Origin: Mytilus trossulus
Lineage: Eukaryota
Assembly: GCF_036588685.1 (NCBI RefSeq)
Contig: NC_086373.1
Span: 73,346,001 to 73,410,000, forward strand
DNA length: 64,000 bases
Direction: 5' to 3'
Under the pieces are notes generated by a model. It searched no databases. It was not told where the DNA came from and was given only the letters and a program-made list of their open reading frames with translations. Shown here piece by piece: positions 10,201 through 51,720 of the stretch. Within the stretch, counting starts at the first letter, position 1; every line of letters starts with the position of its first letter. The translations under genes were made by a program, and so were the position numbers.

Positions 10201-13200
10201 TATGAAAACAATACATGATAGGACTACAATACAAAAAATGGAAGAACATTCAAGACAGAGAAATACACAAACTAACAATACAGTAGAACATTACGACATG
10301 CTAATAGTTATTAAAGGAACCAGACTTATAATTTTATACGCCATACACGTGTTTCGTCTACATAAGACGCACCAGTGACGCTCAGGTCAAAATAGTAAAG
10401 AAATCTAAACAAAGACGAAGAACCCTGATGACCTAATAAACGTGGAATTCAGTGTTGGTTTTTTGTTTTTCGTTTCTGCATTCTGTATAAATTATTCGTT
10501 TATCATTTTGTACAGATCGTTCTTGTAATGACAAAGATAGCCATACAAACATGTTTTAACCCCACCACATGCTATATATGCCTACTTCAAGTCAGGAGCC
10601 TGTAATTCAGTGGTTGTTGTTTGTTGCTATATATCATATTCTTTTTTCGTTTATTATTTTGTACATAAATCAGGCCGTTAATTTTCTCGTTTGAATGGTT
10701 TTACAATTGTCTGGGCCTTTTATAGCTGACTATGTGGTATATGTGTTTCGCTCATGGTTAAGGCCTTACTGTACCTATATTTGTTAATTTCTGTGTCATT
10801 TGGTCTCTTATAGAGAATTGTCTCATTATCAATCACAGTATATTTGCTTATGTTTGTATGTTCTAAATGTACTACTGTTTTGGAATAAATATTAAGTCAT
10901 AAACTAGGCCATACTAACCTGATTTATTAATTTTAGTGCAGAATATGAACATACAACACTTTATCGATAGTTTTAGATATGACAACATATTAAACATTAA
11001 TCTATAATGAGACAATTTCAAAAGACTATCTAATTAGATGGGTCTTACCGTTTACATTATTTTAATTTAAACTTTATACTGCTTTTTCTTAGACACTAGA
11101 CATTAGCGTTAATTTTCTAGCAGATCAGTCGAGATATAATGTAATAGTTTCAATGTTTAGCTAATCTATACGAGTAAACTATCGCAGTAAAATCGTTACT
11201 GTCTGAAAAATTCAATATAATTATAGGCTTGAAGAAGTTCATAGATTGAGATTTTAAATACATTGAGTAAAAATATTAACTTTAAAGTAGTTAATTACGT
11301 TCACATATTTTTCCAACAGTGTTTAAACTAAATCAGTCACTGATTCAAACACTTATACGCCAGACAGCAATTAATAGTAGATCTACAATGATTTGAATTG
11401 CCGTATCCATGGGGATTTATCATTGATACATCCCTGCAAGATGATCAAATACGAAATGCAAATATTCGAAAATAAAAATTATAATAAGCTTCTTGTTTTA
11501 TTGTCATCTATTGTCATCAAATAAAAGAAATAAGCGTAATGAAACTTCACAGAGTAAACCGCTTTTTATAACACCAAATCTATGAAGTGTCAAGTTACAT
11601 AAGAACCAGGAAGTGAGGAAAACATGACAAACATGACAAACACGACGAACAAAAACCTTTTCAAGGTTACATCAATTTTAAGCTCAATATGTATAATGGT
11701 GCATGAATATAACAAATGTTTCCTCTTCCTGTTCTAGTTTGTCAATTTATCATTTGATTGAAATGCATTAGAAATTAACAAAAGCTCTAATTATTTCTTT
11801 TATTCTAACCAAAATTTATTTAGACATTTCTCTAAGTATCAGACACACAGAAACAATAAACCTACCATTTTTTACCCAGGTCGCGGGTCACTTCAAAATA
11901 AGATGGTCAGTTCGTCGGGGTTTCTTCGATCGTGGTTCAAAATACTTCTTTAAAATTCTTCCAACTTGCCTGATTCTTACAAAGACTGGCTCTAAAAGCT
12001 AAACTTTTTTTCATTTGATCATAATAACACTCTTCTCTTCATGTATAATTGTAGTATGTTTATTGTAAATACAATTTTGTAAACAATTTTATATAAACAG
12101 TTATATCTGGTGCAGAAAACTTTGTTTTAGATTTATGAGTTTGACTGCCCCTTTGGTATCTTTTGTCCCTCTTTTATTACCACTGGGTCGATGTCTCTGC
12201 TGGTGGACATTTTGTCCCCGAGGACATCTTCCGCCCAGTAGCAAAACTAGCCATGGCGTTGTCAGTTTGTTTTAGATTTATGAGTTTGACTGTCCCTTTG
12301 GTATCTTGCGTCCCTCTTTTATTACCACTCGGTCGATTTCTCTGCTGGTGGACATTTTGTCCCGGAGGACATCTTCCGCCCAGTAGCAAAACTAGCCATG
12401 GCGTTGTCAGTTTGTTTTAGATTTATGAGTTTGACTGTCCCTTTGGTATCTTTCGTCCCTCTTTTAGTATGATATGTTTTAATATTTGTAGTATGCAAAA
12501 GGTAAAAGACCTATTACTTTTTTTCCAATTAAGATACTTTACAGTGATTTGAGAATATATATATTACGATCAACTGCATAGCCTTGTATACCTACCATGT
12601 AAATATTTCAATTACACAATTTGTTTTCAATTCCACGAATAAAGGTCTTGATAGTTCACCTACACAGTGATACTGGTAGAACTTTACATAACATAGATTT
12701 AAAGACTCTAACTATGACAAACATTTATTTATTGTACATATATCAAGGAAGATTTAGAAATGGAATAGTTCATTTTCATCGCCATTAATAGGTATCACAA
12801 TCAGGTCAACATTTTATCATATTGTTTGCATCGTGTCTAGTACAAAGCATCTTAGATTAACACCAACAAATATAACCGGACGGGAGTAGTCAACAGTAGG
12901 TCGTATGTGAGTAGCTACGATGTTTTGCAAATATGAGACAGAAACAAAAAGTGTACTATCACTTAGTACATAGTGTAAGCTACGACTTATTCGTTCGTGT
13001 TATGGTTATGAAGACATCCAGGAAATGAAATATATTTGAAAATTCAAAGACAGTTCGTCTCCAAAACGATAGATCACAAACAACAATGATAAACTAGAAA
13101 TTCTAACTGTTTAAATATCTTAAAATATTGTCTTTCGACGGGTGATTTACTAAGAGTAAAACGTTAAATAAAGTAAAATTGTTAGTAATTTATCAAATGA

Positions 13201-16200
13201 ATTCATTTCATTAAGTCATTCTTCAATTAAAAAGTATGATGTACGAAAACATCGCTTTGTACAAAAAGAATGACTTGATTGGTTTTTAAAGAAATAATTT
13301 CATTTGAAAAATTACGAACGATCTACTGTTTTGTATGTTTACATATACAAAAGATATACATCAATCTTTTTCTTATCTATTGTATTCTGCGATACTGATA
13401 AAGCATCACTTTCTGATGATATCATTGAATATGAATAATTTAATACTTATACATTTTGCATGATAATATCAACGTCAGTACAGTGAAAAACAATACTGGT
13501 CAAAGGAAATAAAATACATTATTCCAGCCTCCTTTTATGTCAGAAAGGAAGCTTCCGTTGTAAACTGCCAATTAATATCTCACTTTACAATTTATAAAGC
13601 AAAAACTATATGATTTACTCGTTCTGCTGCACGAAAAATTAATAATTGTTACACATATTTAGACTAAAAGTTTCATTATAAAACGTCAATGACACAGATT
13701 AAAGATATATTTTATCTTAAATCTTTTCTGTAAAATAATGAAAGTATTATCTCTTATCATTAGACGAGTATTATTACAATGATTTTGAATATATATTGTT
13801 TCTAGAAAATTTTCAATGAAATGTGCAAAACCTTTTGCGTTTATTTAGTTTTCCCCTTACTCAAACTAGACAGATCCCCCACCCCCACCCACTTAAAGTA
13901 CCAGTATAAACCAAAATAGACTCTGGTAACTTTTTCAACAAACGCAATAAATTTCATGTATACTCAAGGACACACAACCCAGCTTCTTATGTATGTCACC
14001 ATTGCACCATCATTTCGTGTCCTTTTTACGTTCATGGCTATCATTGTTCATATTCCTACATATGTTGCTATTTCTATTGAAAAAAACAAGCTAAATTCAA
14101 ATATTTAAAAGGTGTATTGAACTTGCATTTTGATTTGAAACGAAGTCCATCCGAAGGAATTTTCCTGTAATGTTCTTTTACATTGTAAATGGGAAACTTT
14201 ATTACATGTTGTAACCATATTCTATGACAAGCATTTAATGAACTTATAATTATCAAGGACATTGTACAAATGTGAATACTTGGAAAATATAAAAAAAAAA
14301 ATGGTACTGTAAGATATTTCACTTCAAAAGAGGAGCGAAAGATACCAGAGCGACCCTGTCACAGTCAAACTCATAGGTCGAAAATAAACTGACAACGTCA
14401 TGGCTAACAAATAAAAAGACAAAGTCTAATCCGGTAAGTCACATTCGTGGTAAAAAGGGAAGTGGATTATAGTTACAACATAAGGAACATATCTGTTATC
14501 ATCTGCGAAACGGTTATTCCATAACGGTCAATCAACTCATGATGGCGTCCGTAAAATTAACGAAGGGATGATTTCAACGGCACCATTTGGAAATCTTGGT
14601 TTGATTGCGTCCTGGTGAGCAGCAACCCTCTATCAAGGAAATCATCATAGGTAATACACGCCCGGAATATCGTATCAATTGGGAGAAATGTACTCCGTAT
14701 GCAGGCGCTGCTAGAATGTTGCTACAAAGATATTAAAAGTTCACATTTGGCGTGTTGCTATCTCTGCATGAGATATCGGATTTAACTTCCCCATTCTAAC
14801 CTACGTACTTAAGGATGTCTGCTTGTCATGTTTTGGAATATTTGTCAGATTTTCGAAATCCTTTGGTTTTATCCATTTCAATGCCTTAAAAAAAAAACCC
14901 ATTTTTCTTTTTAAAAATCTTTTACATGTATAATTATAAGTCAGTTGTAAAAGTCTTATAAAATTTTATTTATTTTTTAATAGTACTTGGGAACCTTAAC
15001 TGGTCAATGATAAAGCTATGAAAAATCAAGAGAGAACATTTTCCCGCCAAAATTCCAATAATATCTCGAAAACAAGCACATGAACCCCCATATTTTTTTT
15101 GCTATTTTGATTCCTCAATTTATTCTCTTTCAATGCATGCTAGTTTTATGAAAAGTTATTTATATTGAAACTGAGCAGCGAACATCCTTAAGGATCAGTT
15201 TGTGTTGTTTTCCTTTTGATAATTGGTTTTGTTTGACGTGCCGATCTCATAAGTAAAACCCTTACCAGCTGGTCTTCATCGTGAATTCTCAAATTGTGCT
15301 GGCTGTTAAAACACAATGCTCTGTATATGTCTGTATTAAGTCAGAAGCCTGCACATTATTTTTTTCGTCTGGTGCTATATGATTACAATTCAGGGTGTTG
15401 ATTTTCTCGTTGAATTGTTTTACATTTTGTAAGGTCTTAAAGCGTACTATGTTGTACTAGTTTTGCTGATTTTTATAGGTGTTTAAATCCACTCATCTTT
15501 GGTAGACAGTTGTCTTAAAGTCAACTGTACCCAGTCAATTCATTTTAACATAAGCTACTTAGAGAACAGAGTAAAAAACCAGAATCTATAAAACTGACTA
15601 TGGACCCCATAAATCTTTTCCATTACACCAATTTTAATGTAAAACAATTGAAATTTGTTTTTATTTCAACGTAAGTCTTTGTAAAGGATTTTCCCTAGTG
15701 ATGAATTTTATTTTCATTATAAGCATGAAGTTTAGGAACATGATAATACATTGAACCACATACAATATAGTTAAAATTCAAAGTGGGAAAAATATTTTCT
15801 AAAATGAATATCAATGGTCATTAATTTATTTAACTATTATATGTGGATATGAATTTTGTTATTGAAACATACTCTATGCCTAAGCAGATGCCATTAATCA
15901 GTTTGTTATACAACATGCTACAGTTTAATATTACTTGTTTTTCATATCTATCTGATTATTAATTCCTCTACTAGCATTTAATTCTGTTTAGATATTTCTC
16001 TTTATCAAAGCCCAGTAGGCTGAGAAAACATTATAAACTGTAATTGCCTTTATAATTAACAAAACTCAAAAGCAGTGCGCACTTGAACAAATGGTAAAGT
16101 TGATAATGATACTTCTTTTTAAAGTTTTTTTTAAAGATTTTATTCATAATTCGAACTATTTTGCTTCTTTTTTTTTTAAACAAAAGGATATAAGTTTGGA

Positions 16201-19200
16201 GGGTATGTAATAAAATTGCTTTTATTTCAGATATTACGTTAACCGTTAACATGATTTAAAACATAAATGTCCTGAATTTTCAGTTGATAATTCCAAAGTT
16301 AATAAGAAAGTATGGTTTCAAATCAATCGAGAAGAGTTGAACGTGCATGGATTTTAGTATTCTGTTGAGGGACAATACGTCATAGATTCCTTTAAATATT
16401 TATACACCCCCGGTATTTATTTTGATTTGTCTTGAGTGTCCTGGATAAAGGTAATCATGAAACGGCCACCGAACTCAATGACGCATAGATTGTTATTTTA
16501 GTACGTTATCACTTAGCATTTACGGCCATTTTTACTGTTTCGTGTCCCTCACAAACCCTACGTCCCCACATTGTCTTTTGAGAAATAAAATGACTGTAAG
16601 AAAAAAATATTGAATAAGAAAAAAAAATGATTCACAATTTGCTGTCGATATGCACATCTACGTAGTATGTCCTTGTTATCTACAAAGTTTCATGCAATTC
16701 TGTTGTGTGGTTTCAGAAGAGATGCGATGACAAACGGTTGCATTAGTATATTGATGGCAAATAAGTTCAAAGGCGCGTAACTCCTAGAAAAGTGAATCGT
16801 AATTTCCTGTCGATATGCCATCTGCGTAATATGTACTTATTATCTAAAAAGGTTTCATGAAATTCTGTTGTGTGGTTTGAGAGGAGTTGCGAGGACAGGA
16901 AACAACTGATGGACGGACATACTGGTTAAAAACATTATACCCTCCGCAACTTCGTTGGGTATATCTAGCCCAGTAGTCAAAGTTTTCACATGAACATCAA
17001 TAATGTGGTCATTCTTAGAAATTTCCTGTTTACAAAAGTTTGATTTTTTTCTCAAAAACTAAGGATTTTCTTATCCCAGGCATAGATTACCTTACTCGTA
17101 TTTGGCACAACCTTTTTGGAATTTTGAACCCTCAATGCTCTTCAACTTTGTACTTGTTTGGCTTTAAAAATATTTTAATATGAGCGTCACTGATGAGACT
17201 TATGTAGACGAAACGCATGTCTGGCATACTAAATTATAATCCTGGTACCTTTAAAACTAAGCATAATAAGGGACATGTATTTATAACCTAGACATGTTAA
17301 TGACATGAACATGATTTCCTTTGAAAATTAATCAGGGACATAAATTTAACTAAAATATTGATACGCAACTGTAAACCAATATTAAATATTACAGTTTAAT
17401 TAACTTTTTTAAATAAAGGGCATGGACATTTTTACCGAGGAATATTAATGACATGGACATGATTTCCGAGGAAAATTAGTCTAGGACATACATTTTATTA
17501 ATTTGTTTTACACAACTCTTTAAAAATATTTCTGATATTAAAACATAACATTTATATTTACCTTATAATGCTAGGGGCATGGTTGTTTTTACCTCGGAAT
17601 ATTATTAACATGGACATGATTTTATTGGAAAATTAGTCTGAAGACATTCATTTTAACAAAAATAATAATACGCAACTCTTAAACAGTTAAAAGATATCAT
17701 AATTTAACATTTCAATTTCCATTGTTTATATGTCATCCAATTTATTATAGAACATGATTTCCAAGGAAAACTAGTCTGAAACATACATTTTTTTTCTTTA
17801 ACAATATGTATTATATTAAAACGTAACATTTATATTTAGCTTTTAAAACTAAGGGCATGGATATTTTTACCTAGGAATATTATTGACATGGACATGAATT
17901 CATTGGAAAATTAGTCTGAAGTCATTCATTTTAACAAAAATATAAATACGCAACTGTTAAACAGTTAAAAGATATTATTATATAACATTTCAGGTTCCAT
18001 GGTTTATATGTCATCTAATTTATTATAGGACTTGATTTCTCATGAAAATTAGTCTTCGGAAATAGATTACTAACATCGGACTAAATATACTAGTAAATTA
18101 TGTAACCATGGACTTTTTAAACTAGTTATAGTCAACAATATAATAACATAAACGGTACCACTTTTCCTGTACCAGATGCGCATTTCGACAATACATTTCT
18201 CTTCACTGATGCTCGAGGCCAAAATAATTGAAATCCAAAATTTATATAAAAGATGAAAAGCTATAACCCAAAAGGTCCAAAAAGTATAGCAAAATCCGTA
18301 AAAGGGATCAGAGCGTTGAATGAGGGAGATGCATTCCTTAATTTATAATAATTTCTAACATTTGGTAAAAGCAAATTAATAACACAAAAAATCCGTATTT
18401 TTTATGCCATTACCGGAGTACTGGCTACTGGGCTAGTAAAACCCTCGGGGACTAACAGCCCACCAGCAGAGGCATCGTCCTAGTGGTAGAAAATGATTGA
18501 CTATTTAAAAACGCTCGTGAATATGACTAAACATAGTATAATATCTAAAAAAAAATATCGAGAAATTTATTTGATATAAATAGAAGTTAGGGTAATCGTT
18601 TATCCCCAAATCATTCAAGCATATCATTCTATTTGTCACTTGCTGACGGCATGAACCTCAAATGCATTCTAGAAAGTTTCATTTTTAAAACGTCAACTAG
18701 TTATGTATTAATCCATTTGTCAGGTTTTTTTTCTTATATAATGCAAGATTTTTTCATTTTCCTTGCTTTAATCAAATTGTGAATGGAATGGGAAATGTGT
18801 CAAAGCGACAACAACCCGACCAAAGTGCAGATAGCTGTCAAATAAAGTTTACAAATACAAATATAAACTCAATGTTAGGAGAGGTTTCACGCCTTGAAAC
18901 TAGTTTAATTAGGAATAAAGGATACAACAGATACAGTTAGGTCTGCCTCATATCTTGACTTACATCTAGAAATTTACAATGAGACCGCTTGAAAACAAAA
19001 CTTTACGACAAAAGAGATAATTTCAGCTTTCCAATTGTATACTTTCCATTTCTAAGTAAAACATTCAAGCAGCACCTGCATACGGGGTATATATCTCCTA
19101 AAATAGGAATCCTAATTGATACGATATTTCCGTGCTTGTATTTCCTACCATGATTTGCTTGATAGAGGGTTACTTCTCACAAGGACGCTATTAAACCAAG

Positions 19201-22200
19201 ATTTCCGAAAGGTGAAGTTAAAATCATCCTTTTATTAAATTTTACAGACGCCATAACGAGTTGGTTGACCGTTATGGGTTATGGAAGTACTGTTTCACAG
19301 ATGATATCGGATATGTTCCTTACGTCGTAACTTCAATCCTCTTCCTTTTTATGTATGTGACCTACCGAATTAGACTATTTACCGGATTTGTTTTAACATG
19401 AGCAACACGACGGGTGCCACATGTCGAGCAGAATCTACTTATTCTTACAGAGCAACTGGGATCACCCCCAGTTTTTGGTGGTGTTCGAATTCGTGTTGCT
19501 TATTCTGTAGTTTTATATGTTGTGACATGCGTACAACTGTTTGTCTGTTTGTCTTGGCGTTATCAGTTTATTTCCGATTTATGAGTTTGGCTGTCCCTCT
19601 GGTATCTTTCGACCCTCTTTTAATTCCGCCATATTGTCTATGTGATTGTCCAAATTCGTGAGCTTGTAATTCAGTGGTTGTCCTTTGTTTTTTTTGGGGT
19701 TTTATTTAATCATTTAGTCCATGAACCGAATCGTTATTTTTTCTCGTTTAAAAAATTTAAATAACAAAAATATATACATTAATAAAATATTCAAAACGGA
19801 AAGTCCCTAAGCAACTGGCAAAATCAAAGTCCTAAACACACCAAATAAATGAAAGACAACTGGCATATTATGGACTTGGTACAGTCATTTCCTTTATGCA
19901 GAAAATAATGATCTAAATCTGGTTTAATAGCAAGCTGAACTTCTGACATGTTTGACATTCGCATACAGTTTCGTCATCTTGAAATATTGTGTGAACAAAA
20001 CAAAAACAGACATAAAACGTAAAAAATGTCAAAACAATATTACAGTACTAATCAAAGAGTATGCGAAATTTATATCATTTGTAATTTTGGGCTCTTTGTA
20101 GGCTACTATGCGGTATGGGTATTGCTGATTGTTGAAGGCCGTACGGTGACCTATAATTGTTAATGTCTATATCATTGTGTGTCTTTGTGGAGAGTTGTCT
20201 CGTTATCAATCAAACCACATATTCTTGTTTTTATAGCAATATTGCTGTAATCTGTTAAAATTTGTTTGAAACTAAGAAATAAAACACAATTCCTGGATTT
20301 CTTTTATACATTGTTTTTTATTTGATTCAGGGAAAAGTCAGTATTACACGAAGGTACGGATTTCCTGGTATTTCAATCATACCACGACGATAAAACTTTT
20401 GCTTTAGTGGGAGCTGTGTGTGCAGTATCAGGTACTGTTTTAGATTTAAATCGTTTAATTGTTCTTGTAAAATAATACACAAAAAGATAATCAAAGACAC
20501 GAGGCAAATTATTTTGTACGCCAGATGAAAGTCTAGTATATCAAAATGATTTTATAGAAAATAAGACGGAACTATTTTAGAATAATGTTACTGATAACGT
20601 TTCATATAATTTGTCTAGTTTTTCCTGAAGGCAGCTAACCCACAATCTCTTTGAAATTTGATAGAAGGAAAAATTCATATTCATAACAAAGTATAAAGTT
20701 TATAAAATAAATATGCTTTGAAGTACTTTCTAATGCTGAAATTGACCTCTAGACATATATGATACACTTTGATTGCGTGGTTATCACCCGGTATGTCTTT
20801 GATTATTTTAGAGGTAAATATATTTTATTTCAGGGCAGATTAAGTGCAATTTCTTTTTTAAACACAAAACGTCCGATTTGGTACAATTGAAATCATTGTG
20901 AGAAAAAAGATCTTTTTTGTTTTTGTTTCAGGAATACCGTTAGACACAGTATTAGAAGTCTTTGGTGAATATTTTGTGCAGTACTGTTTTCGACATGGAT
21001 ACGATCAACTATTGAGAACACTTGGCAAAGACTTCATATCATTTATACAAAATTTAGATGCTTTGCATGCAAATTTACAACGCACTTATTCTAAACTACG
21101 ACCTCCATCATTCAGGTGAGCATTTTTCTTTTAGTTCAATAATTATTCTTCTGACATTCAGAACAGATTTAACATAGAGAGAATCTGTTGATTGACAATT
21201 AGGTATGAAAAGAAGATTACATATGGTTGATTACATATTATATACGTCAGGTCTATCATTGTAGATGTAGGGATTAGAGAAGGACTTCTACCTTAATACA
21301 CACTATCAAATGATCAAATCAAAATCAAATAAAAATCTATTTTATTAAATGGTGTAACGAATAAAGTCAAAGCAATATATAACAGTTACAGCATAAGCTC
21401 TACCTATTCAAACCATTTCGTATGCACAAATTGAAAAATGTTGTTGTATATAACAAATAGGTTAACAGATTAAATGTACATCGTCGGAAAACATAAAAAT
21501 ATCAATGGTACGAGCTTTACATATAGGAAGAAAAGTAGGGTGGATTAAATCTTGTCGAACTTTTCCATATTTTGTGACAATTTCATATACTTTTGATATT
21601 CAGTAATTTAATGTATAAAAAAAATATGCATTCGTTTTATTTTACAATTGAGCACTGTTTAAAATTCAGTTTTTGATTTCGTTATCTTAGATTTCTAGAA
21701 ATCGGGAAAGATCTGCGAACAGTAGACTACTATTATTGTTATAATTTCCCTCTTTCAAATTGACATTTCAAAGCTGACACTGAGAATAGTAATTTTTACA
21801 TCCGAATCTCCCAAACGGTCTTTCATATAATTGTTATGAATATATAAAATGTTAAAATCACTGTTGGTATAAAACAGAAGCAGGATATAAAGACGATATT
21901 CTTATTTATATTTTGAGCCTCAGTTCATTTGTGCACTTGCATGACACTTTGAAACAAAATAGCTGATTGTGTGAAAATTCTCAATATAAGGAATATAAAA
22001 GAAGGATGAAAGATACCAGAGGGACAGTCAAACTCATAAATCGAAAATAAACTGACAACGCCTGGCTAAAAATGAAAGAAGACAAACAGACAAACAATAG
22101 AACACATGACACAACATAGAAAACTGAAGAATAAGCAACACGAACCCCACCAAAAACTAGAGATGATCTTAAGTGCTCCGGAAGGGTAAGCAGATACTGC

Positions 22201-25200
22201 TCCACATGTGACACCGGTCGTGTTGCTTATGTTATAAAAAATCCGTTAAATAGTCTAATTTGGTATGTCACATTCATGAAAGGGAGAGGGATTCTAGTTA
22301 CGACGTAAGGAACATATCCGAAATCATCTGTGAAACGGTTATTCCATAACGGTCAACCAACTAATGAAGGGACGATCAAAAATAGCATGTTAAGATTCAT
22401 CATTAGCTCTAGACAAGTATGTGTACAGAATGAAACAAAAACCGTGTATATGTAATGTTAGAGATGATGAAGTGTTTTCATGGGTAAGAGTATACCACAA
22501 ACTAAAATAACGCCCTCTTACTCCGAAAGACTCACATAACTCTGTGTAGGATCATTCAACAAACGTTTATCAAAATGAATAAATAAGTATGGTCAAGTTA
22601 CAGTTATAGGACTAGATCACATATTGAGGTAAAATTTTGCATACAACTTCAGCTTGTTGACCTATGAATAAAAATCGAAAAAAAATAATGCATTTATCCC
22701 TTTCATTGTTTTAAAATTAGGAAGTGTTCTTATATACCAAAAAAAACCAATCGTAAATATAACTGTTTTATTAGTAGAGAATACTCGACAATAACTTTGA
22801 ATTAAGAAACATACAGAAAAAACGAGTAAATTATAGTACACGAATAGTCCACATACTTTGATTAAAAAAATAAAGAAGAATACAAAACTATGAGTTAGTT
22901 GAAAAAATGTCGTTAAGATAAATGGACAAATAAAACTAAAATAGACGAAGCATGCACAAAATGTATGTGTGTTTTACTCGATACTGTTTAATATGTAACG
23001 GCACAGTGTTGAATGTATTTTTGTATGTCATCCTTCCAATGTTTAAACGAACAACAATTTTGTAGTTTTGAACAGATGTGTATTTAAATGTTTGTTTCCA
23101 AATGCAAAGAATGAAATGTTGGTCATCAACAGGGCATCATGTAACGATAATTTCGTAAAAATATGTGTCGTTTATGTATAGTCTCAACGTATTAAAACCC
23201 CATTGGTGGCCTTGGTCAGCTATGATTTCTACTCTTCGGTCTGGTTATTGTCTCGTTGACACATTCCTTGTTTCCATTTTCTATTCTATTTATTAAATAT
23301 TCATTTACAGATGTGAGCGAAAAGATGCAGATTCTGTTTATTTGCATTATTTTACAGAAAGAACTGGCTTGCACCCAATAGTAAAAGGTAATTATGTTGA
23401 TAATTTTAATTACAATATTGTACAGATAGAGCCTGCTCACATGTAATTATGTTAACAATTTCATTTTATCAATATTTAAGAACACGGGTGTCATTCAGTT
23501 TATCGAGAGAAATGGGCGTGAAAGACTAGCTAACGGCGGTCAAGTATTGAGAGATGATCGTGAAAGTTCTGGTAACGGATCGTGAAAGACATTTAATCGA
23601 GAAGACATATGCAAGATCAGTAAATATTCTAATTTAATTAATTACACAGACATATTTACGACAAAATAAAACTGTCTGTCAAAATGGTTCAACATTATGA
23701 TCAGTATGTCAGAATATCCAGTTTCAAAAGTACACAGTTATTACAAATGGACAAAAGGCAGATTGCTTCTCGACATTTCAATGACATAAAAATGTAAACA
23801 AACACGATTTTTTCACAAATTCGACGAAATAAACTACGTTTATCAAAATAAGGGCATTGTATTTGAATTAATAAAACGGTTCTCATAGTTATTTTGAATA
23901 AATATAATCTGAAACTTTGTAAATAAAGAACTATTCACACAAAATTGATTTTTTTGGATCGTGAAAGATCACGTACCGCGTTTTTGAAGATCGTGAAAAG
24001 GATCGTGAAAGATCTGATGTTACGAAGACGTTCATGTTGCTGACAGTGCGTGTTTCAGAATGAAGCGCGAAATATAAATCAAACGTTTAATATTTTTTTA
24101 TGGCTAGCATTATTCCATACAATAGTTTATTTTCTTATCTAAAGACCATCAGAATTGGCTCAATTTTATATTTTGAAATGATATAGTTATCAAAATAAAT
24201 CTTACCTATAATGTTGATTTGGTGCCACGCAACTTCCGATGTCACTGTAGGACGTAGTGCAGTTGCCAAAAAAGTAAATTTTATATTATCCATCAATGTA
24301 TGTTAGTGTATACTGCAAGTTGTTACACCCGGCACTTGAAACTTTTGTTTAGATCTCAAAGAGGAGCTAAAATGAACTGCTGCGCATACAAACAATCCAT
24401 ATCATCGCTTTCTCGGGATGTAAGCGGGGTAACAGGAAATTTTTATTTGTACAAGTACAAATAGTTATCAAAGGTACCAGGATTATAATTCAGTACGCCA
24501 GACGTACGTTTCATCTACATAAGACTCATCAGTGACGCTCATATCAAAATATTTATGAAGACAAACAAGTAAAAAGGTGAAGAGCATGGAGGATCCAAAA
24601 TTCCTAAAAGTTGTACCAAATACGACTACGGTAATCCTTCGTTTTTCGGAAAATTCAAAGTTTTGTAATCAAGAAATTTTTATCAAATGACCACATTATT
24701 GATATTCATGTCATCACCGAAGTGTTGAATACGGGGCTGGTGATACCCTCGGGGACGAAACGTCCACCAGCAATGGCATCGACCCAGTGGCGTAAATTGT
24801 TAGTAAAGGTACTAGAATTATAATTCAGTACGCAAGACGCGCAAATACATTGAAATTATTATTTGGGCATTCGTGAACATGTTGTTTGTAAAATAGTTGG
24901 ATGATTGTAGGATGAAGTTTTTATCGTCATGTGAAGTACTCACTTATCATGAGTTATAGGATACCCATATTTTGTATATTGGATCCTATAAACTAAATGT
25001 CCGTCAAACAGGATTCACCTGACTTTGAATTTTCCTCATTTCATGGATGAAGATTCATTTTAGTGGTCAAGTCCTTATCGAGGATTCGTTAAGCTTTATG
25101 ATAACTGTCTGGTGTTATGATTGTAAGGTGTATATTTTCGACTTGTGCAAGGTTTCAACTAACATTGAACTCATTATCATGCATCAATCTGCAATGTTTG

Positions 25201-28200
25201 TTTTATGTTGTTTGGCCTTTTGAATATATACATGTATGCAATAGCGACAAGGTGTGTCATGTATGGTGTACATGTCTGTCAGCATGTTTCTTATATGACC
25301 ATGATGACTTCAATTGTGTTTGATTTAATAAATGATAGAAAGATGTCTATGTTTGGCTGTCGGTCAGGGTTCATATACTTTTGACCTTATGTTTCGAATT
25401 AATTGGCCAAGCATAACTTTTACATTTGTCAGTTTCTAAGGCACTGTAAGGATCGGAACACATTTATTTGGTGTACGGGATATTTGTAGAGATCTGTATG
25501 GCATGGTTCATCTGACCATGGCCTTTTATTTTTTTATGAAACATTGATAATCTTAAGCGCATTTGACACCCAGATTTGACACTTCTATTAAAACCCTTGA
25601 TATTATAGACGTTCAACACATATACTTTCATAAGTAAAGCAAACAAGACATTGCAGCATTTGCGCTTCGGTATTCTATAATATGTACTATATAGTTAAAT
25701 CAATCCTTATCTGCATTGTTTATAAAGAACTTAAAAAGTTCTGTTGCACACAATGTTGGTTATCGTTTAATCCAAAACTACACATGAAATGTGCTGTTTT
25801 TGCTATGATTTTTTGTTTGATGGATAACATTTTGGTTTACACGTTGCATATCCATATTAATGGCTAACTAGTGTCGGTGTGCCTGAAGTGCACTAGACTG
25901 ATTCACAGAGCTGAATCTTTCACACTTATTTAGACACGTTATTAGTTGGGGTTTTTTTTAACTTTTGAGGTTATTAATAAGTGTTGAATAGAAAAAAAAA
26001 AGATAATAGCTTTAATCATGTTAATGTTCATCCTTATCAAAATAGTTACAGGCTTCAACCACTTGCAGATTTATCAAATGGTAATAGAGATACTGATTTC
26101 TGATTACTAGTATTAAATCTGGTCACGCATTTTCTTTCACGATCGAAAAAATACGTTGCCTGATCTTTCACGATCAAGTTTGATGGAAATTCAACAAATT
26201 CAAGGTTTTCATAAACAAATTAACGCTTTTAATGGAAGAACATTCTTTAATTTTACTGTACTATCAGATACACCAAAGATTGAATTTCAAATATATCATG
26301 ATATTCTGAAATATCATGCTTTATAGGTACACAAAGCGTGTTTTTTTTTAAATTAATTTCATAGAGACGCATTGCGCCTTTTATGTTTTTTCAAAAAGTA
26401 CTTCATATTTTCTTTATCTTCTTTCACAGTTATGTTGAGGAAGTTAAACCATTTTGACAGACATATTTTTTTGTTCGGATTTGTTCCGCGTTTTGAAAAT
26501 TAAGCGATTTTTTCAAAGATTCTGACCTAGAATGTACATTAAATGACTTTCACGATCCGTTACCAGAACTTTCACGATCGTCCCTCAATACTTGACCGCC
26601 GTTAGATATTCTTTCACGCCCATTTCTCTCGATAAACCGAATGACACCCGTGAAGAAGTTATTGAACGAAAACAACCCGTATAATACTAATGTAATGAAG
26701 GGTAATGGGTTCATTACTATCTTAAAATTATTTCGTGAATATATAATAATTAAATAATAAAAGTATTTCTTAATATGCACAAATGCCAAACCGTTTAAAA
26801 GCGCTTCAATATATTAAAGTGTTCTCCGATTTCTTTAGCGGGTGTGATTGTTGCATCCTGTCTTATTTCCATAGAATTATACGTTTGTATTCGTAAGTTC
26901 GTCTGCATTTTGTTTCCCGACCCATCTTATAGCTGTGACTGAACCCATTAGAAAATAGCTACGCGAAATCTCTGTCTTAATATTTTACCAGTAAAATTTA
27001 GATTTCATTAATTGAAATAAAAAACGTAACAACAGACAAAAGCATAGCGAACGGGTTTTGATTTATAAACACTGTGAGATAGGAACATCACTGTCAAAAA
27101 AAGTGAAAGCTTACCAAAGGGGACGAAAATTTAGTTACATATAAAGTATATTTAAAACATGCTTGATCATGTGAAAACAATCATCAAGATAATGGTAAGT
27201 GTTGTATAATGTATCAATTATTTGCAATTTGGACGGGTCTTTACTGAATTTTGATTTCTATACTTATATTGATAAAACTCGTATGCATACGACTGTCATT
27301 GCGTCCTGTATTTATGAGAGAGGTATTTATCAGATCAAATGACGCATCATTGTATAGAAACTTGTAAAAAAAAGAAAACAAAACCTCATGCGTCTTAAGC
27401 GCTTGCGGGATTTACCTTCATGTTTGGCTTTTATTCTTATATTAAAACGATTAGTTAATTTATTCCAATCATTGTTTCCGCATGTCGCTGTCTGAAATCT
27501 TCTTAAAAGTTGTTACTACTGATATAAAAGTATATTTTTATCACGTTTATTTCTTGTTGCTTTCATTTCGTTTCATTTCTAACTTAAGGTTCCACTAAAG
27601 TCAAAATATAGGACACTTCATAAACATCTAAACTTTGCCTGTATTTTTCAACCTATAATGAATAAAGTCATAAACTATGAAAACATATATTCATTTAAAC
27701 ATACTTTACATATACACACAGTGTAAATTGTAAATAAACTTGAAATTGTTATGTTGTGGCCAAACCGGTTCTTGGGGTAAACTCTAAATTTTCAAAAAAA
27801 TCTGCAGGCCTGCAAGACGACTTAATTTGCTTAAAATTGGTTTGGATGAATACTGTAACATGTAATGCAGGGCAAGCTAATGCTGATTTGTCACATACAT
27901 ATGTTTTAATGGCATATTTGTCCAATTTCTGTATTGTACCTTCCATATTCGTTCACTTAGATACATGAAATTAACTGAAACTCGAAAATCAATACATTTT
28001 ATAAAAAATCAACAATGGCTTGCCCTGCATTACATGTAATAGTATTCGTCCATACCAATTTTAAGCAAATTAAGTCGTCTTGCAGGCCTGCAGATTTTTT
28101 TGAAAATTTAGTGTGCACCCCAAGAACCGGTTTGGCCACAACATAACAATTTCAAGTTTATTTACAATTTACACAGTGTGTATATGTAAAGTATGTTTTA

Positions 28201-36903: not shown

Positions 36904-36957
36904 TGTGCTGTAAATTGAATAATTCTGAGACTGTGATCAAAATTTTTGAATAAAATG

Positions 36958-37162: not shown

Positions 37163-37201
37163 GGACCATTTAACAGGTCGAAGATGTCTTTCTAGAACTT
37201 C

Positions 37202-38479: not shown

Positions 38480-39290
38480 TAGTTTGGAGGTAGACTGTTA
38501 CAAAAAATTGTCGGCATACCTATAAGAACAACATGTGTGCCTCATCTTGCCAACATCTTCTTATTGTTATATGAGTTCCTTTGTACACTTACAAATAGAC
38601 AATCAAAGAAACCATATCTTAAATGTCAAATTCAGAAGTATTGATGATGTTCTTTCCATTGACATTCCAAACTTTTCGGATTAAATTCCATTTATATATT
38701 CCTTAAAAATAGAAATTAAAACAACAACAGTCACGGCTACCTCCACCTTGTTTTTAGAATTATACTTCAAATTCAATTTAAGCGGTCATCTCAATACCAG
38801 AATCTATGACAAACGAGACGATTTTTATTCTGAAATTATCAATTTCCCTTATCATAGTAGCAATATTCATACTTCAGCTGCATATTGGATATATATTTGG
38901 TATTCAAGGGTTTGCAGCTTCTGCTCAGACTTTATAAAACGGCACCAGTGTCTGAATAAAATGATTGAGCTAGATCTCGTCCTTTCTTAAAATCATCAGA
39001 AAATACATCATGACCTTGTTGATAGATGTTCCATAGCAACTTCAAAAATAATACACTACGGTCTTAAAGTATAGATTATGGATACTAACGTTGTTTATCA
39101 TCTTAATAACGTGTTATCGTTATCTTTTATTTGTCTTTATAAATATAACTTTTACTTAAGGCTCGGTTTTTTGTGATATTAGTTTTACGTGGCACTGTAC
39201 TCAAACGTCCTATCATTGTGTTAGTATGCTATGATAATTTTTTGTATTTTGATTTTCATATTTTGCTAATGTGCCTTGTTTTGTTTTGTT
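38480..39290 (+). mobile_element. Decayed Penelope-like RT, third family
   Basis: QKIVGIPIRTTCVPHLANIFL, FRSIDDVLSI, LNTRIYDKRDDFYSEIINFPYHSSNI with stops and frameshifts; an oppositely oriented retroelement 3' region abuts at ~37800-38450. Confidence 0.8.
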
Positions 39291-39302
39291 TTCTATGTTA
39301 CA

Positions 39303-42565: not shown

Positions 42566-42913
42566 GAGATCATTATGATCCAGAGCTTTTTTCATCTTTG
42601 ATGAGTTTTAATAACCACAGACTTGATGCCACTTCTGGTGAAAATTTGCCTTAAGGGTATCATCAATCCGTAAGTTCGCACTTGTGTGTTGACATAAAAT
42701 ATCATTGATGTGGTCATTTTATGTAAATTTAATGTTTATCCATCACTACGTTTTTCTGCTCCATACTTTGATGCTCATAGCCGTTTTTGGCAAACATCTT
42801 CGAAATTTAACATTGTTATGATCTTTAACATGGTATTTAATTAGACCTTTCAACTTTAAAACGGGCGTTTTTCTAACATAATTCTACGCCTGGAATCTAC
42901 GATGAGTTATTTA

Positions 42914-43117
42914 AGCAGGATCTGCTTACCCTCCCGGAGCACCTGAGATCACCCCTAGTTTTTGGTGGGGTTTGTGTTGTTTATTCTTTAGTTTTCTATG
43001 TTGTGTCATATGTATTGTTTGTCTGTTTGTCTTTTTCATTTTTAGCCATGGCGTTGTAAGTCTATTTTAGATTTATGAGTTTGACTGTCCCTTTGGTATC
43101 TTTCGTCCCTCTTCTTT
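42914..43117 (+). mobile_element. Penelope-like family B, 3' end (another copy at ~43890-44061)
   Basis: Matches 19428-19621. Confidence 0.8.
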
Positions 43118-45558
43118 AATAGTTATTTTTCGACATTTTTTGATATTAATATAAAACCATATAGATAGAACTTTTCTTATTTTTTGCGTGTATCAACCCT
43201 ATTTTAATAGGAATATAACCAGATAACTCTAACTACTAGTACTCTTTTCATCCTCTAGAGATCCGTCAAAGTTGAATAGTAGTGTAAAAACAATGTTTGT
43301 GTTTGTCCTACGCGCGACGCATTTTAGGGGACAAAGAAATACCGTCTATCGTCTGCACATCTGTTAAAGTTTTAAGCGCCCATACGTGTACAATTCATGA
43401 CATTTAAAAAAAAATTAGATCACATTTTTAATAACAATGTCTTGGACAAGTTCGAAAATGAGAGCCGATTAACTCGATTTTCAATAGAGTCATTACCTTT
43501 ATCAATATCAATTATGTGAAAAATTGCATTATTAGCGCTCACGTGTACATCTTTTGCTAGAAGTTTTTATTGAAAGTATATCAGCAATGTCTAGAACAGG
43601 TTCGAAAATGAGTGTCGATCATATTTTTTAAAAGAATCATGCTCCTGGTGAATATCAAGTTATTTAGATTGCATTTCGTTTGTTCTCAAGCCTTGATTTT
43701 TCTAAGATGCTTATGAAAAGTTCTGTTAAGTTATTGCCTTGGAACAATCAAACTATTTGCACTGTGGGGAACCCTGGAAATATATTCCTTTTTCTGTTGA
43801 TTCAATTCTTGCATTCTCTATTTTTTCACTTTTCTCAATTGACAATCATTCACTCACAACCAAACGTCAGAAGGAAAAAGACAAGTCACATATTGAGCTT
43901 TCATGGTGGGATTCATGTTGCTAAGTCTCTAGTTTTCTATGATGTGTTGTGTGTACTGTTGTTTGTCTGTTTGTTTTTCTCTTTTTTTTAGCCATGATGT
44001 TGTCAAATTGATTTCGACTCATGTGTTTGAATGTCTCTTTGGCATCTTTCGACTCTCTTTTCTCTTCTGGTTATATCGATAGCCACATATCTAAGACCAT
44101 TGGAATAAAAAGGGGTTCCATTATGTACATTGTATGTACCCTTCCATTCAATATACAGTTTGCTTCTGGAATAGCACAATACCATTTCAATTCTCCTTAA
44201 TTTGTTCTCAAATGAAGTTCACTTTGCAACAGGAGTTCCTATTAACTCTTAATTGGGAAATATATGACTACAACGAACAGTATATTATATACCAAATTCA
44301 CATAAATTCTCAGTATATGATGGATCTAACTCATTTAAAGTCAGAATTATGGCTGATTGCAGTTTAAAGTGATCATAACTTTTAAGCTCATATTCAGTTC
44401 CAAATATTAGTAGACATATTTCCCATTAGTATTGCCTGATATATTATACTTTGTTCGATCGATATTGAGATTCTGACTTATCACACATCAACAATCATCA
44501 TTACACTGAATTCAGTTATATTATTACGTTAGCATACTCATGAGGGAGGTCTGTAGCAACGATATAATGCTTAGTAGATACAAATTTTAAAGGATAAACG
44601 TGATGTCAAATATCGATTTCATCTATCAAACATAATACAAATGTGATTTATAACGTATGAATGAATGGATGAATATTATTTCTCATTAGCTACTAATTAC
44701 ATAGTTACAGAGAATTTATATTTATATATATATGTAAACAATTACATTAAATATTAAAGCACTTGTGACCAATACAGACAATGTATTTTTGAATTACAGG
44801 CTAACCAGAACGAGTGGGCCTCATATTTATCATTTTCATAACTCTCTATAGTGTTTCAAGAACAACACACTTACTCGAGCACATTTATTGCTGAAATTGA
44901 TATTTCAGTATGTATTTAAGTACCAAACTTAGCTTACAGCCTCTTTATGTCTTGATGAAGAGAATAACATGACATGACATAATGATATTCCTCACCGATG
45001 TCTCTTGATTTGAAAAGATGGACCATCCTTTTATTTCTGGATATGATGTTCCAACTTCCCGTTTCAATGGGTAATCGGTGACTTCCACATCTAAATTTGC
45101 ACTGTCATTTTTGTTTATTATTGACAATTTAAAAAAAAATAACTTTCCAATTTAACATCAGATACCTTTACGTACACATCTAAGTCACATATTACTCGTA
45201 AAATTAGAATCTTAGAAAGACAATAATCTATATAAATAATACAGAAATTGCATAATGTTCTTGCTACCGACTATAATCAATTTGTACGTGTGAATAGCAT
45301 TTTCAGTCATTAATATTTAATGTATAAACAAAGTTCTTTAATGTAAGGGGTCCAAAAGCATAATTTTGCTATTTGATAAGGAACTATTCGATTTGAATTT
45401 TCCTTGGGTATTTTTGTTCCATTTAACTTTGTGTTGCTAACAAAATACACATATGAATGATGTAGTCTGGATTATCTTGTAGTACAGCAAAAGTGAAATA
45501 AAAGTCCTCCTCGATTAGAAAAAAACATCTTCTCATTATAACTTTGACTCCCCTTTAA

Positions 45559-46959: not shown

Positions 46960-47225
46960 CAGTTGAAATATCTTCGGTATGGTCATATTTATAAATTAAC
47001 AAAACTGAATTGCTGTAGGGATGGTGTATCTTAGAAATAAATCATCTATCTGTATTTGTATTTGGAAAAAAAACCAGATTGTAACTGTTGGTACTTCATG
47101 CTCGTCAATTTCGTGCTTCAATTGGTCTTTTAACTTTTTTATTCGATCGGCGTTAGTGAGTTTTTTGTAGACAAATCGAGCGTCTGTCGTACAAATCATA
47201 AGTCTGTGATATTTGATGAGTTTTT
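46960..47225 (+). mobile_element. Highly decayed retrozyme-related copy
   Basis: ggtcatatttataaatt... and a broken hammerhead (ggcgttagtgagttttttgtagacaaatcgagcgtctgtcgt); a related fragment lies at ~42620-42730. Confidence 0.5.
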
Positions 47226-47475
47226 TTATACAGCTTACTTACACTTACATTTCTACTTGTTACACTGGTTATAGTTCATGTTGTTCTTTTTATTGGTGTT
47301 CCTTGTCTTGTACTTTTTTACTTGGTCTTCAACGATAAACCAGTGAACACATCTTCATCAAAAGAGGGTAATAATACAAGGGCAATATTTAAAACTCATT
47401 AGATCAAGAGAAATGCAATGGCACATGTGGCACACTGTCCTGTACCAAGTCAGGAAAATGGCTCTTGTTATATTA

Positions 47476-48014: not shown

Positions 48015-48949
48015 TATATATAAAAAAAGAAGATGTGGTATGATTGCCAATAAGACAACTGTCCACAAGAGACCAAAATGACACAGACATTAACAACGAT
48101 AGGTCACCGTACGGCCTTCAACGATGAGCAGAGCCCATACCGCATAGTCAGCTAAGGCCCCGATAAAACAATGTAAAACAATTAAAACGAGAAAACAATT
48201 TTGTGTTTACTCGGATTTCAGTGTTTGTGTGATTTTACTTTATACAACCATCATTTCGTGTATAAAACATCAGAAATTGTTTTGTAAACGTAAATGCATT
48301 AACTTGTTGTAAATCATAAATCTACAGCTTGCATTCGAGTTATTTAAGAGTTTTGTTTTAAATCCAGTTAAAACCCTGTGATTAAACATTTCGTTTTTTA
48401 ATGTTTTCAATAAATTCCCTGGTTAATTATACCTTTCAGTTTCCTAAAATGTTAATGGTAGCTGATTAATGAGCGTACGTATAATTGTTACCTTGAAAAT
48501 AGAAAGATGTGTGAAACTAAACACGCACACAGAAACATCAATATAGGATTTTATCTAGTTCAAATTCAGTTTAGTTCATCCATATACAATAGATTTTGGT
48601 CATTTAATGTTTTTTATAAATAATCCGCAGGCGCTCGGAAAAAAATATGTCATAGACTTAAAAATACTTCATCCCGTTTTATGATAAGGTTAATATGATT
48701 ATTTACCACTTTGTCGTGCAATGATTGCACAATTATTCTTTTCGATTTACAATGTACATAGTTGCGTTTATCCTAAAGCCTGGGCGATGATTTCACGGCA
48801 ATTTCACTTTGCGACTTTTCTTGTAATAACCAGACATCGAATGAATGCATGCAAACCGTTCTCACAGTCTTAGAAAAAATCGCAATCAAAACATTTTCGG
48901 ACCAATCATACCAATATTTCGAATTTAATTTAAAAATTAAACGGTAGAC

Positions 48950-50700
48950 ATTATCTGTGAACAAAGCTCTGTTCATTACCGGTTAATAGGTTAAATAAAA
49001 TTTTAGAGGATTGCAGCACAATTTCATATAACAGTCCTAAGTATGAAATAGTTCAAATTATTATGGCATATTGTTATTCTAAACTATTTCCAAAAATTGA
49101 TCGACCTGAAAATCATAAAAAAACATTTTATTAAAATAAAGTATGTCAATAAAGGTTTTGATTTTGTAAATATTGCCGGTATATTTAACGACCATTCTAT
49201 TAAAGAACAAATTCCTGGATATGTTGACAATACTGAGGTCCCTCTTATTTGTTATATTTACAAGAAATCTACTCGAAAAAAATTGTGTTCAATTATAACC
49301 AATTGTGTAAAGATGTTAATATCAGTGAAAATACACCTACTTCATGTAATTGTATTAATTCCGCATACATTTATGGAACAATTTCCCATGTTATAACAGG
49401 AGACCTTAACATCGTTCAAGACCGAGAGTTTAAAGCATTCCTCAGTAAAGGACCTAAATATCGTTCCCCTTAAGTTATTAATTGGAATGAGTGTCGTAAT
49501 ATCATCCACGACGCACTCCGTACTTACTGTTTGAAATGGATAAAACGGGAAAAGGCTAACAAAAAATCTTTGGACTCTTTTTTCAATTCAGTAATGAACA
49601 TAGTTGTTATACGTATTCAACATTTTTAAGAGCATTTTATTATTAACATAACCACAATAAACCTATTTCTCGTATCAAACATAAACTAAAAGAACTAGCC
49701 AAGTAATTTGTTTTTATCCCGGCCGATAAAGCTGCTAATAATATTATTATGGTTTGACGTAAATTTTACATTGAGGTTCTGAAAAAAGAAATTAACAATT
49801 CACCAACATTCCAACTGACTCCATTTTCAGAAAACGACATCTGTAACAAACATAAAATTTTAGCTTCCGCTTTACAAGCAGAACCAAATACAATGAAAGT
49901 CCCAACTATGTATTGGCTTCCGAAGCTCCAAAAAAAACCTTACAAATATTTGTATTGCTATGAGTTACAATTTATGACAAAAATCAGCAAAGACCAGGGC
50001 AGTGGTCATTGTTAGTGTTATCTTTATTTAAAGTAAGTTCAACATGATAAATTTCTTTAGTATACATACTGAAGTCGTCATTATTGAGAGCCAACGTGTC
50101 ATCCAAATATCTAAAAGTATTATTAAATTTGTTTATCAGATGTTGTTTCGATTGGTCTTTGCTGATTTTTGTCATAAATTGTAACTCATAGCAATACAAA
50201 AACAGGCCCGCAATAAGTGGTGCACAGTAAGTCCCAATTGGAATTCCGATAACCTGACGGTAAATTTTGTTTAATTTCTTTGGTTACATCTTCTGACATA
50301 AGACTCGGACTTCTCTTAAATTGAATTTTAAATGTACATATTGTTATGCGTTTACTTTTCTACATTGGCTACAGGTATAGGGGGAGAGTTGACATATCAT
50401 AAACATGTTTAACACTGCCGCATGTTTGCGCCCGTCCCAAGTCAGGAGCCTCTGATCTTTGTTAGTCTTGTATTATTTTAATTTTAGTTTTTTGTGTACA
50501 ATTTGGAAATTAGTATGGCGTTCATTATCACTGAACTAGTATAAAAAATTATATTTGTTTAGGGGCCAGCTGAAGGACGCCTCCGGGTGCGGGAATTTTT
50601 CGTTACATTGAAGACCTGTTGGTGACCTTCTGCTGTTGTTTTTTCTATGGTCGGGTTGTTGTCTCTTTGATACATTCCCAATTTCCATTCTCAATTTTAC
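48950..50700 (+). mobile_element. Penelope-like retroelement (same family as 6997-8676), internally deleted and partly inverted
   Basis: HVITGDLNIV...LSKGPKYR, FVFIPADKAANN, PTMYWLPKL on +; RT core (GIPIGTYCAPLI...FRYLDD) inverted at 49997-50260; 3' end on + to 50700. Confidence 0.9.
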
Positions 50701-51058
50701 ATAATATAGTCACGAGAAAGTACGGTTTATTAATTTACTTTCCATAACTTGGAATGTTTTTAAAATAGTACTCTACCACATTTAAATAAGTCACCATTTT
50801 TGGGGGATATAAGCGAAATATATTTGTTTTACTTATTATATTTATCTGAAAACCTTTTTTTCCAAAAACATAAAGTGTCTGTGGTAAAGTTGTAGGTATC
50901 CCACATTAAATTTTGTTCTATTTATATCGCTGTTGTTCTTTCATATTTTAAAAGAAATTTAAATGACTATGTAATGAATATTAAAGAGCTAGACTATGCG
51001 ATGAAAAGTCAAAATTCTTACTTTATACTTGTTTGGCTTAATAAATATTTTAATCTGA

Positions 51059-51107
51059 GCGTCACTGATGAGTCTTATGTAGACGAAACGCAACGCACGT
51101 CTGGCGT
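51059..51107 (+). ncRNA. Type I hammerhead ribozyme, core intact, in a truncated retrozyme copy (51021-51139)
   Basis: gcguca-CUGAUGA-GUCU(uaugu)AGAC-GAAA-CG(caacgca)CG-UC^-uggcgu: stems I, II, III and all core nucleotides present; predicted cut after 51101. Confidence 0.85.
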
Positions 51108-51720
51108 ACTAAATTATAATCCTGGTACCTTTGGTAACTTTTCTTTTTGTTGTGGAAAATTCCAATAGTGTGTATGTGAAATGATGATTAATAAGAGTAT
51201 AAGAGTCGCTGTATAATTACCAATGCGACAACTATCCATAAACCAAACTAACAAAAAAATGTGAACAACAACATTGACAGTACTGTATGAAATTAATTCC
51301 GAGGAGGAACTGACCAAAATAACATGGTAAATAGAAGATAAGATTAACAACGGTACTGTTTACAATTGACAAAATAAGATTGATCAACATTCACCTAAAT
51401 GAGAACTAGTGCCCCACTGAAAAGGTTAGTTACACAGTTCCTGTGCTACTTGTGACACCCGTTATGTATCTCTTAATAAGTAAAAGTCATAATAAAATAT
51501 TTAGTTTTGGAACGCGCAGAACAGTTAGAACTGTGGTTTTTATATCTGTGATTTGGTATCATTGTTTAGTTTAAAATGAAGATGAAGATAAGTTGCTAGT
51601 GTAAAATTATTAATGAGAAAAAACAACCAACACCAAAAACTGTAAAGCACGAATTAGGAATGCTGCGATAATACAAAACAAGTTTACTCGTCAGGATCAT
51701 ATAAATTACCAAATACGTAT

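Follow-up and report, generated by a model that had tools for sequence, protein, structure and literature searches.

The DNA analysed here is a 64,000-nt stretch of the genome of the mussel Mytilus trossulus (RefSeq assembly GCF_036588685.1, contig NC_086373.1, positions 73,346,001 to 73,410,000), referred to below as the window; positions are those of the whole window, and the genome with which it was compared comprises 1.3 Gb. Along it lie copies of two families (A and B) of retrozymes, non-coding repeats that carry a hammerhead ribozyme, together with pieces of Penelope-like elements (PLEs) and a DNA transposon (Table 1). The retrozymes themselves, and their six worn copies in the window, are ordinary; which reverse transcriptase (RT) copies animal retrozyme circles into DNA is, in the literature available to us, an open question. 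The comparisons reported here suggest, with a probability that we put at roughly 0.6, that A and B have been copied into the genome by the RT of Naiad2, a hammerhead-free PLE of the Naiad clade whose 5' hairpin they share.

An earlier note on this stretch, made from its letters alone, had listed six hammerhead sites, and a hammerhead-homologous motif of 44-49 nt is indeed present at all six: 10338 (-), 17184 (+), 18169 (-), 24495 (-), ~47150 (+) and 51059 (+). A stem-checked descriptor finds two matches in the window and none in each of 100 shuffles, and the Rfam search that had been proposed as a check returns only two weak hammerhead matches there, far under the cut-off. Both core boxes are kept in three of the six copies (17184, 24495 and 51059), while the hammerhead at 10338 shows a GUA triplet together with two changes in the core, that at 18169 a C3>G change, and the copy near 47150 keeps neither box. 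The ~335-350-nt units in which the motifs were said to lie are near-full for three copies (303, 352 and 384 nt), the other three being 3' pieces of 118-128 nt; identity to array units elsewhere in the genome is 71-90%. No second hammerhead adjoins any of the six and none of them is tandem; since each has at most one hammerhead, double cleavage cannot release circles from them. What the six motifs represent are scattered single copies of two homologous families, most of them decayed and 5'-truncated. A 138/278-nt tandem at 17265-18055 separates the A copy ending at 17259 from the B copy ending at 18141, and the 3' ends of the two copies face each other across it.

Elsewhere in the genome A and B form tandem type I hammerhead arrays, with one hammerhead per unit and periods of 354-355 nt in A, in dozens of near-identical units, and of 350-351 nt in B. 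One 44-nt hammerhead of family A has 9,492 exact genome matches and a 35-nt pattern of family B has 3,823, with none for the reversed-pattern control of either. Array copies of both carry CUGANGA, GAAA and NUH in type I order; the box of B that had been called degenerate is a canonical CUGAAGA, and the degeneracy is decay of the one copy in the window. Likewise, the GC-rich block that the two families were thought merely to share is common to both, but A and B align across the whole unit at 70% (252/358). The unit is laid out as head hairpin, body, hammerhead and a ~41-nt tail, and folding of the whole circle is no better than that of shuffles. Covariation in the hammerhead stems, which the note had set as a test, is seen at 6 of 14 pairs changed on both sides, a score reached by none of 500 shuffles, in an alignment of eight rows (A, B, two of a third family, C, and four window copies) with 95.5% of cells paired. 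The loop III sequences of A, B, C and the 24495 copy are self-complementary, and A and B match model positions 1-45 of Rfam RF00163 (Hammerhead_1) with 33.0 bits (E 3.5e-5) and 32.0 bits (E 7.3e-5), respectively. Family C (L287:209-1654; also L292, L297, L165 and L169) has a 548-nt tandem unit, a body unrelated to A and B, a B-like hammerhead (86% over 42 nt) and no Naiad2 head; its copies stop next to TA runs, close to unit position 412, as PLEs with a C-terminal endonuclease do, and its helper may be different from that of A and B.

Family A is transcribed, with a bias to the hammerhead sense. Reads from four runs, placed on one unit of this family only, number 5,845, 6,669, 10,063 and 3,257 from 8.7, 8.3, 7.3 and 12.7 million records, and the bias is 2- to 11-fold in three of the runs, by the usual library convention, the fourth run being unstranded. 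Head-to-tail joints at their commonest position number 333, 594 and 1,203 in the three stranded runs, and in all four runs reads pass into unlike sequence at unit positions 79-81. One group of A variants is more dominant among sense than among antisense reads (L036, runs X21-X23, clearest in X23), so that most of the RNA may come from a sub-lineage of A.

Where copies end in the genome was examined in 60 evenly spaced 10-kb stretches (600 kb), 20 loci of another Naiad family, Naiad1, and the window, with insertions at edges dropped. Of 48 A-like insertions, 32 end at unit positions 70-89, and their 5' ends are scattered; with the predicted hammerhead cut after unit position 38, the common end lies ~41 nt past the cut and just before the head hairpin. 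Insertions labelled B end at 71-73 in 5 of 11 cases, or in 5 of 7 when two family C rows and two Naiad2 heads are left aside. Most fixed-end copies run 5' through the cut site, which argues that the template was a circle or an uncut multimer. A single 39-nt insertion (L214:3023-3061) spans unit position 39, the first base past the cut, to 77, as expected from copying of a cut linear monomer, and inverted pairs of retrozyme pieces at L206:308-705 and L281:3480-3821 recall the inverted insertions of PLEs. These ends bear on the view that the repeats spread as satellite DNA through recombination and DNA transposons, with hammerhead and RNA incidental, a view that could draw on the arrays of near-identical units and on the copies carried in a DNA transposon. 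We regard it as highly improbable and largely refuted: reverse transcription is what leaves dispersed copies with a fixed 3' end and scattered 5' ends, the hammerhead stems covary, and the transposon lineage comprises ~30 copies among tens of thousands of pieces.

That lineage accounts for one of two window copies that have spread by other routes. The flanks of the 24495 copy are common to 29 of its 29 other top matches and belong to a Transib-type element, which has 5-nt target duplications at 17 of 20 loci (of the rest, one has six nt, one has none and one lacks an end), at the window copy and at 3 of 3 further loci. With 367 exact matches to its ends and 24 to its junctions with the passenger, there are about 180 copies at least by the exact end count, one lineage of which, some 30 copies, carries the retrozyme; the idea that DNA transposons were the route for many retrozyme copies was thus too strong. 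Three of three shorter relatives are free of the passenger, and they could not serve as its empty site, as they differ across that region. The longest open frame in the carrier is 77 codons. Target duplications of 5 nt and inverted ends starting CAC, both present here, are hallmarks of Transib elements (PMC1131882), and the class assignment rests on these ends and duplications, no transposase having been sought; the retrozyme passenger sets the carrier apart from the Transib elements described there. The copy at 10338 is the front of a composite repeat, in which A sequence to unit position 76-83 (a shorter match in one) is joined to a 405-nt Naiad-type tail at 30 of 30 loci (L221-L250), with 2,916 first-look candidates. 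The longest composite copies (window 9899-10420; L221-L250 and L218) reach unit positions 143-145, just past the head hairpin, and several have a different short leader there.

The PLE pieces reported in the window are real and are of Naiad type. The suggestion that PLEs supply the RT was right in kind, but the reason given for it, that minimal hammerheads are typical of PLEs, fails, since the accessible text of PMC8557442 describes Naiads as a clade without canonical hammerheads; the link is instead the GC-rich block, which leads to a second Naiad family. Naiad1, the largest PLE family in the window, was rejected as a helper by sequence, having nothing in common with the retrozyme units (best E 0.65) and no head in its two longest copies. 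Proximity is uninformative: the 600-kb sample holds 36 retrozyme pieces (6,653 nt, 1.1%; scaled, ~78,000 genome-wide) and 25 Naiad2 3' ends, and at these densities the two are expected together in almost any 64-kb window, which proves no link.

Naiad2 was reached through the 145-nt tandem at 12121-12467. It is 3,369 nt long and has an intact open reading frame (ORF) of 1,000 codons in L326 and L338, with an N-terminal GIY-YIG domain, a C-terminal RT, and CxC and DKA motifs in the translation; Pfam places GIY-YIG at 135-172 and RVT_1 at 700-854, both under the cut-off. Its protein is 56% identical over its full length to that of a further Naiad with a 1,056-codon frame. CUGANGA occurs on neither strand of the 3,369 nt, and cores with one mismatch are not in the 3' untranslated region (UTR). 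The GC-rich block of the retrozymes is the first 64-71 nt of Naiad2 (86% over 71 nt in A and 88% over 64 nt in B; E 2e-18), a head that lies 63 nt ahead of the Naiad2 frame and whose junction with the ORF has 68 exact genome copies. At 18 of 18 loci the head lies 5 nt past a copy of the Naiad2 3' end, with an intact 1,000-codon ORF at two of them; 17 of these loci have downstream frames of at least 250 codons, and the four that were read are Naiad2. Partial tandems, with a copy of the 3' end before the head, thus form the pseudo-long-terminal repeats (pLTRs) of Naiad2, and 3.3-kb tandems occur on C14. In Naiad2 and the retrozymes alike, the fixed end precedes the common hairpin by a few bases.

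The same simple bulged hairpin is predicted for the head of A, B and Naiad2 (z -3.07, -2.60 and -3.46), and a pseudoknot or three-way junction was discarded on that account; Rfam contains no match to it. Its inner helix has three two-sided changes, and a second hairpin past the head covaries between A and B. The 1,056-codon Naiad opens with a homologous head plus an extra hairpin, an argument for regarding the head as a trait of Naiads. When metagenome contigs were scanned, 24 loci emerged, of which 16 were set aside as GC-rich chance matches. The eight AT-rich loci include a full Naiad2, a diverged Naiad that matches at 79% over 285 residues and also has its head at this junction, and a different unit of ~310 nt in the order head, body, hammerhead and tail, the head fold of which is not significant (z -0.92).

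The hairpin is likely of Naiad origin, so that the likely source of the retrozyme is a remnant of a Naiad, made up of head and end, to which a hammerhead was added. Ribozyme-free tandems of head plus end, 135-145 nt in period, lie at 12121 in the window and as similar mini-arrays on C5, C9 and C11, and they show that remnants of this kind arise and are multiplied in the absence of a hammerhead, which is plausibly the state that preceded retrozymes. More tentatively, and with the odds somewhat against it, one might generalize that the RT start of Naiads is set by an RNA hairpin at their 5' end, conserved and so far uncatalogued, and that mussel retrozymes are head-and-end remnants with a captured hammerhead.

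Insight into how such an RNA might be copied comes from a purified PLE which, in the text of PMC11167929 available to us, binds near the pLTR-ORF junction and starts cDNA inside the RNA at a stem-loop, at sites that are the genomic ends, with hammerhead cleavage unneeded for reverse transcription. By analogy, Naiad2 may bind at the head and start just 5' of it. Retrozyme multimers, as described in the literature and proposed here for A and B, would cleave themselves and then be ligated to circles, on every one of which the tail-head junction is present. Naiad protein would bind the hairpin at this junction, nick AT-rich DNA and start cDNA a few bases 5' of the hairpin; synthesis would then cross the hammerhead cut site on a circle or an uncut multimer, and leave either 5'-truncated monomers or arrays. 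If the wider, more tentative reading given above is true, any RNA circle furnished with a 65-nt hairpin would become a Naiad substrate for rolling-circle insertion into the genome. The shared hairpin singles out an intact candidate enzyme, an RNA signal and a start position, all open to testing in an in vitro PLE assay that already exists. A further suggestion is that the parasite acquired the hammerhead itself and did not inherit it from the helper, and that genome counts of hammerheads mix several routes of spread.

That some Naiad is the helper seems to us a good deal more secure than the choice of Naiad2. The hairpin might be an inherited shared module, such as a promoter or an RNA-stability element, and not specific to a helper, in which case any abundant Naiad, for example the 1,056-codon family, could copy retrozymes; that family also has a head hairpin, and many intact ORFs, the likeness of the retrozyme 3' end to that of Naiad2 is weak, and in the composite at 10338 the part behind the retrozyme front is a relative of the 1,056-codon Naiad. 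We nevertheless consider this unlikely, as a near-identical head is found in Naiad2 only, the 1,056-codon head having its extra hairpin, as the 3' end of the 1,056-codon Naiad agrees with that of A at only 9 of 22 positions, and as compensatory pair changes in the head fit an RNA structure better than a DNA promoter. A 29-nt match of the A tail to the 1,056-codon Naiad, at one time a candidate for a shared terminus, is in fact a retrozyme 3' piece inserted in the 3' UTR of one subfamily (L284:1748-1776; L259, L260, L264 and L286) and copied along with the element.

Less probable again is a canonical hammerhead-type PLE with a C-terminal endonuclease, of the kind proposed as helper for vertebrate retrozymes. 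Long open ORFs of this kind, of 784-911 codons, are present in the genome, a canonical hammerhead occurs in one family, the A end matches one of them at 14 of 22 positions, and Xenopus retrozymes are linked to pLTRs in the available text of a preprint (10.64898/2026.07.22.740005). Their hammerhead is unlike that of A or B, however, and no head was found at their ends; moreover, by eye, (TA)n lies downstream of their ORFs in 15 of 17 stretches, whereas TA runs follow one of 23 A tails and none of 28 Naiad2 3' ends, for which the stretches were shorter. An insertion bias for (TA)n is described for many elements and is not diagnostic of a Naiad. The PLE survey covered, at 10 kb, 20 of 150 scored GIY-YIG places, and a further family is possible.

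Several points weigh against Naiad2 as the helper of A and B, or at least counsel caution. The 3'-terminal likeness is weak: A agrees with Naiad2 at 15 of 22 positions (p ~0.002 among T-ending random 30-mers) and with the 911-codon C-terminal-endonuclease PLE at 14, and B with Naiad2 at 11 of 22, which is not significant; a common 3'-end motif was dropped as proof of the helper, being both weak and nonspecific. In the four RNA runs no clear full-length Naiad2 RNA was seen, depth over the 5' half of its ORF being 0-20 and not clearly stranded, and no pile-up of RNA ends was found at the hammerhead cut site of A, where one was sought. The head-to-tail joints fit circles and tandem read-through equally. 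The 18 Naiad2 loci were chosen by head match, so that 18 of 18 is no frequency; the hammerhead covariation is based on seven to eight related rows, and the Rfam scores of 33.0 and 32.0 bits are slightly below the 34-bit gathering cut-off. A and B are matched to the published Mytilus clones by size, layout and host. Finally, the binding and priming of retrozyme RNA by Naiad2 is a proposal from sequence and analogy, and the analogy is imperfect, in that the purified PLE of PMC11167929 binds within the first 172 nt of the ORF and starts in a stem-loop, whereas here the start would be just 5' of the hairpin.

Other features of the window include exon-like frames at 30765-31340 (Pfam HNOBA, E 1.4e-17, in a search in which 20 of 21 ORFs were without a match) and 36514-36900 (by eye), both likely of a soluble guanylate cyclase; a 73-nt satellite at 58108-61446 with 45.7 copies and 92% matches; and long inverted repeats or hairpins at 27584-28311, 712-801, 1231-1379 and 51736-51840, likely miniature DNA transposons, at which Rfam microRNA matches were under the cut-off.

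Table 1. Retrozyme copies, Naiad pieces and associated elements in the 64,000-nt window.
Feature	Position	Strand	Remarks
Naiad1 3' fragment, broken RT	6993..8676	-	no sequence in common with retrozyme units
Composite tail, ~405 nt	9899..10302	-	core homologous to 3' UTR core of 1,056-codon Naiad, 74% over 98 nt, E 2e-10
Family A 3' piece, unit positions 317 to 79	10303..10420	-	decayed hammerhead 10338-10381; front half of composite repeat
2.4 x 145-nt tandem: Naiad2 head hairpin (first 71 nt) and last 74 nt of Naiad2	12121..12467	+	without hammerhead
Naiad2 3' fragment, two pieces	14326..14750	-	
Family A copy, unit positions 126 to 77	16957..17259	+	hammerhead 17184-17227, intact core, stems I/II mismatched; predicted cut after 17221
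Family B, one full unit, positions 70 to 72	18141..18492	-	hammerhead 18169-18212 with C3>G; head hairpin 18424-18487
Naiad2 3' fragment (RT end and 3' UTR)	18907..19622	+	83% over 734 nt; candidate helper family
Naiad2 3' fragment	21996..22370	-	90%
Non-coding DNA transposon, 3,170 nt, Transib-type	23483..26652	.	115-nt inverted ends starting CAC, 5-nt target duplication; carries family A copy 24459..24842
Family A, 1.1 units, positions 32 to 80	24459..24842	-	hammerhead 24495-24538, core intact, G-U at stem II base; head hairpin 24730-24790; DNA-transposon passenger
Decayed RT fragment, further Naiad-like family	38562..38966	+	31% to Naiad1 RT, E 2e-16
Old A-like piece, unit positions 66-207, head region only	42596..42738	+	72%, E 1e-13; without hammerhead; seventh piece, absent from the earlier note
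Naiad2 3' end	42914..43113	+	further one at 43904-44061
Strongly decayed A-like 3' piece, positions 306 to 80	47098..47225	+	without intact core; 71%, E 3e-9
Naiad1 fragment with internal inversion 49996-50262	48853..50699	+	
Family A 3' piece, positions 316 to 79	51020..51142	+	hammerhead 51059-51107, intact core, loop III with 5 extra nt

The retrozyme class and the pairing of families are already known for Mytilus. The text of PMC7229834 accessible to us describes ~5,000 hammerheads in two similar families of type I, in tandem repeats of 350-390 nt with a 353-nt clone, self-cleavage at ~0.1 per min, and abundant RNA and circles in Mytilus galloprovincialis; A and B are very probably these families. 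The exact motif count here is higher, at 13,315. PLEs are proposed as helpers there, as they are here, and that text does not name the helper, the fixed insertion end or the shared hairpin. With the Naiad clade, as far as the text of PMC8557442 describes it, Naiad2 has in common the N-terminal GIY-YIG, CxC and DKA motifs, C-terminal RT, partial tandems and want of a canonical hammerhead; it is a family separate from the 1,056-codon Naiad, whose ORF matches, by eye, the printed start of Naiad_Mgal. Neither a conserved 5' hairpin nor a retrozyme partner appears in the text of that paper, the nucleotide consensus sequences of which lay outside the comparison.

The helper link is apparently unpublished, although the retrozymes themselves are known: a connection between Naiads and retrozymes was not found stated in the published literature searched, which excluded Repbase, Dfam and subscription papers. 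Its closest mechanistic parallel is Poseidon_Ac, for which the accessible text of PMC11167929 likewise has the genomic ends fixed where RT starts internally on tandem RNA, close to the junction of pLTR and ORF, finds cleavage unneeded, and has public data without RNA ends at the cut site. Poseidon_Ac belongs to a different clade, however, and its start sites fall inside a stem-loop, 111-118 nt past the beginning of the ORF; in the present case the end is just 5' of a hairpin located ahead of the ORF. The vertebrate retrozymes of the preprint 10.64898/2026.07.22.740005, described there as derived from PLEs and non-autonomous, resemble A and B in having terminal sequence in common with autonomous PLEs; in the part of that preprint available to us, which does not cover invertebrates, the Xenopus elements have pLTRs and the hammerhead is the common feature, whereas here the partner is without a hammerhead and the shared piece is a 5' hairpin.

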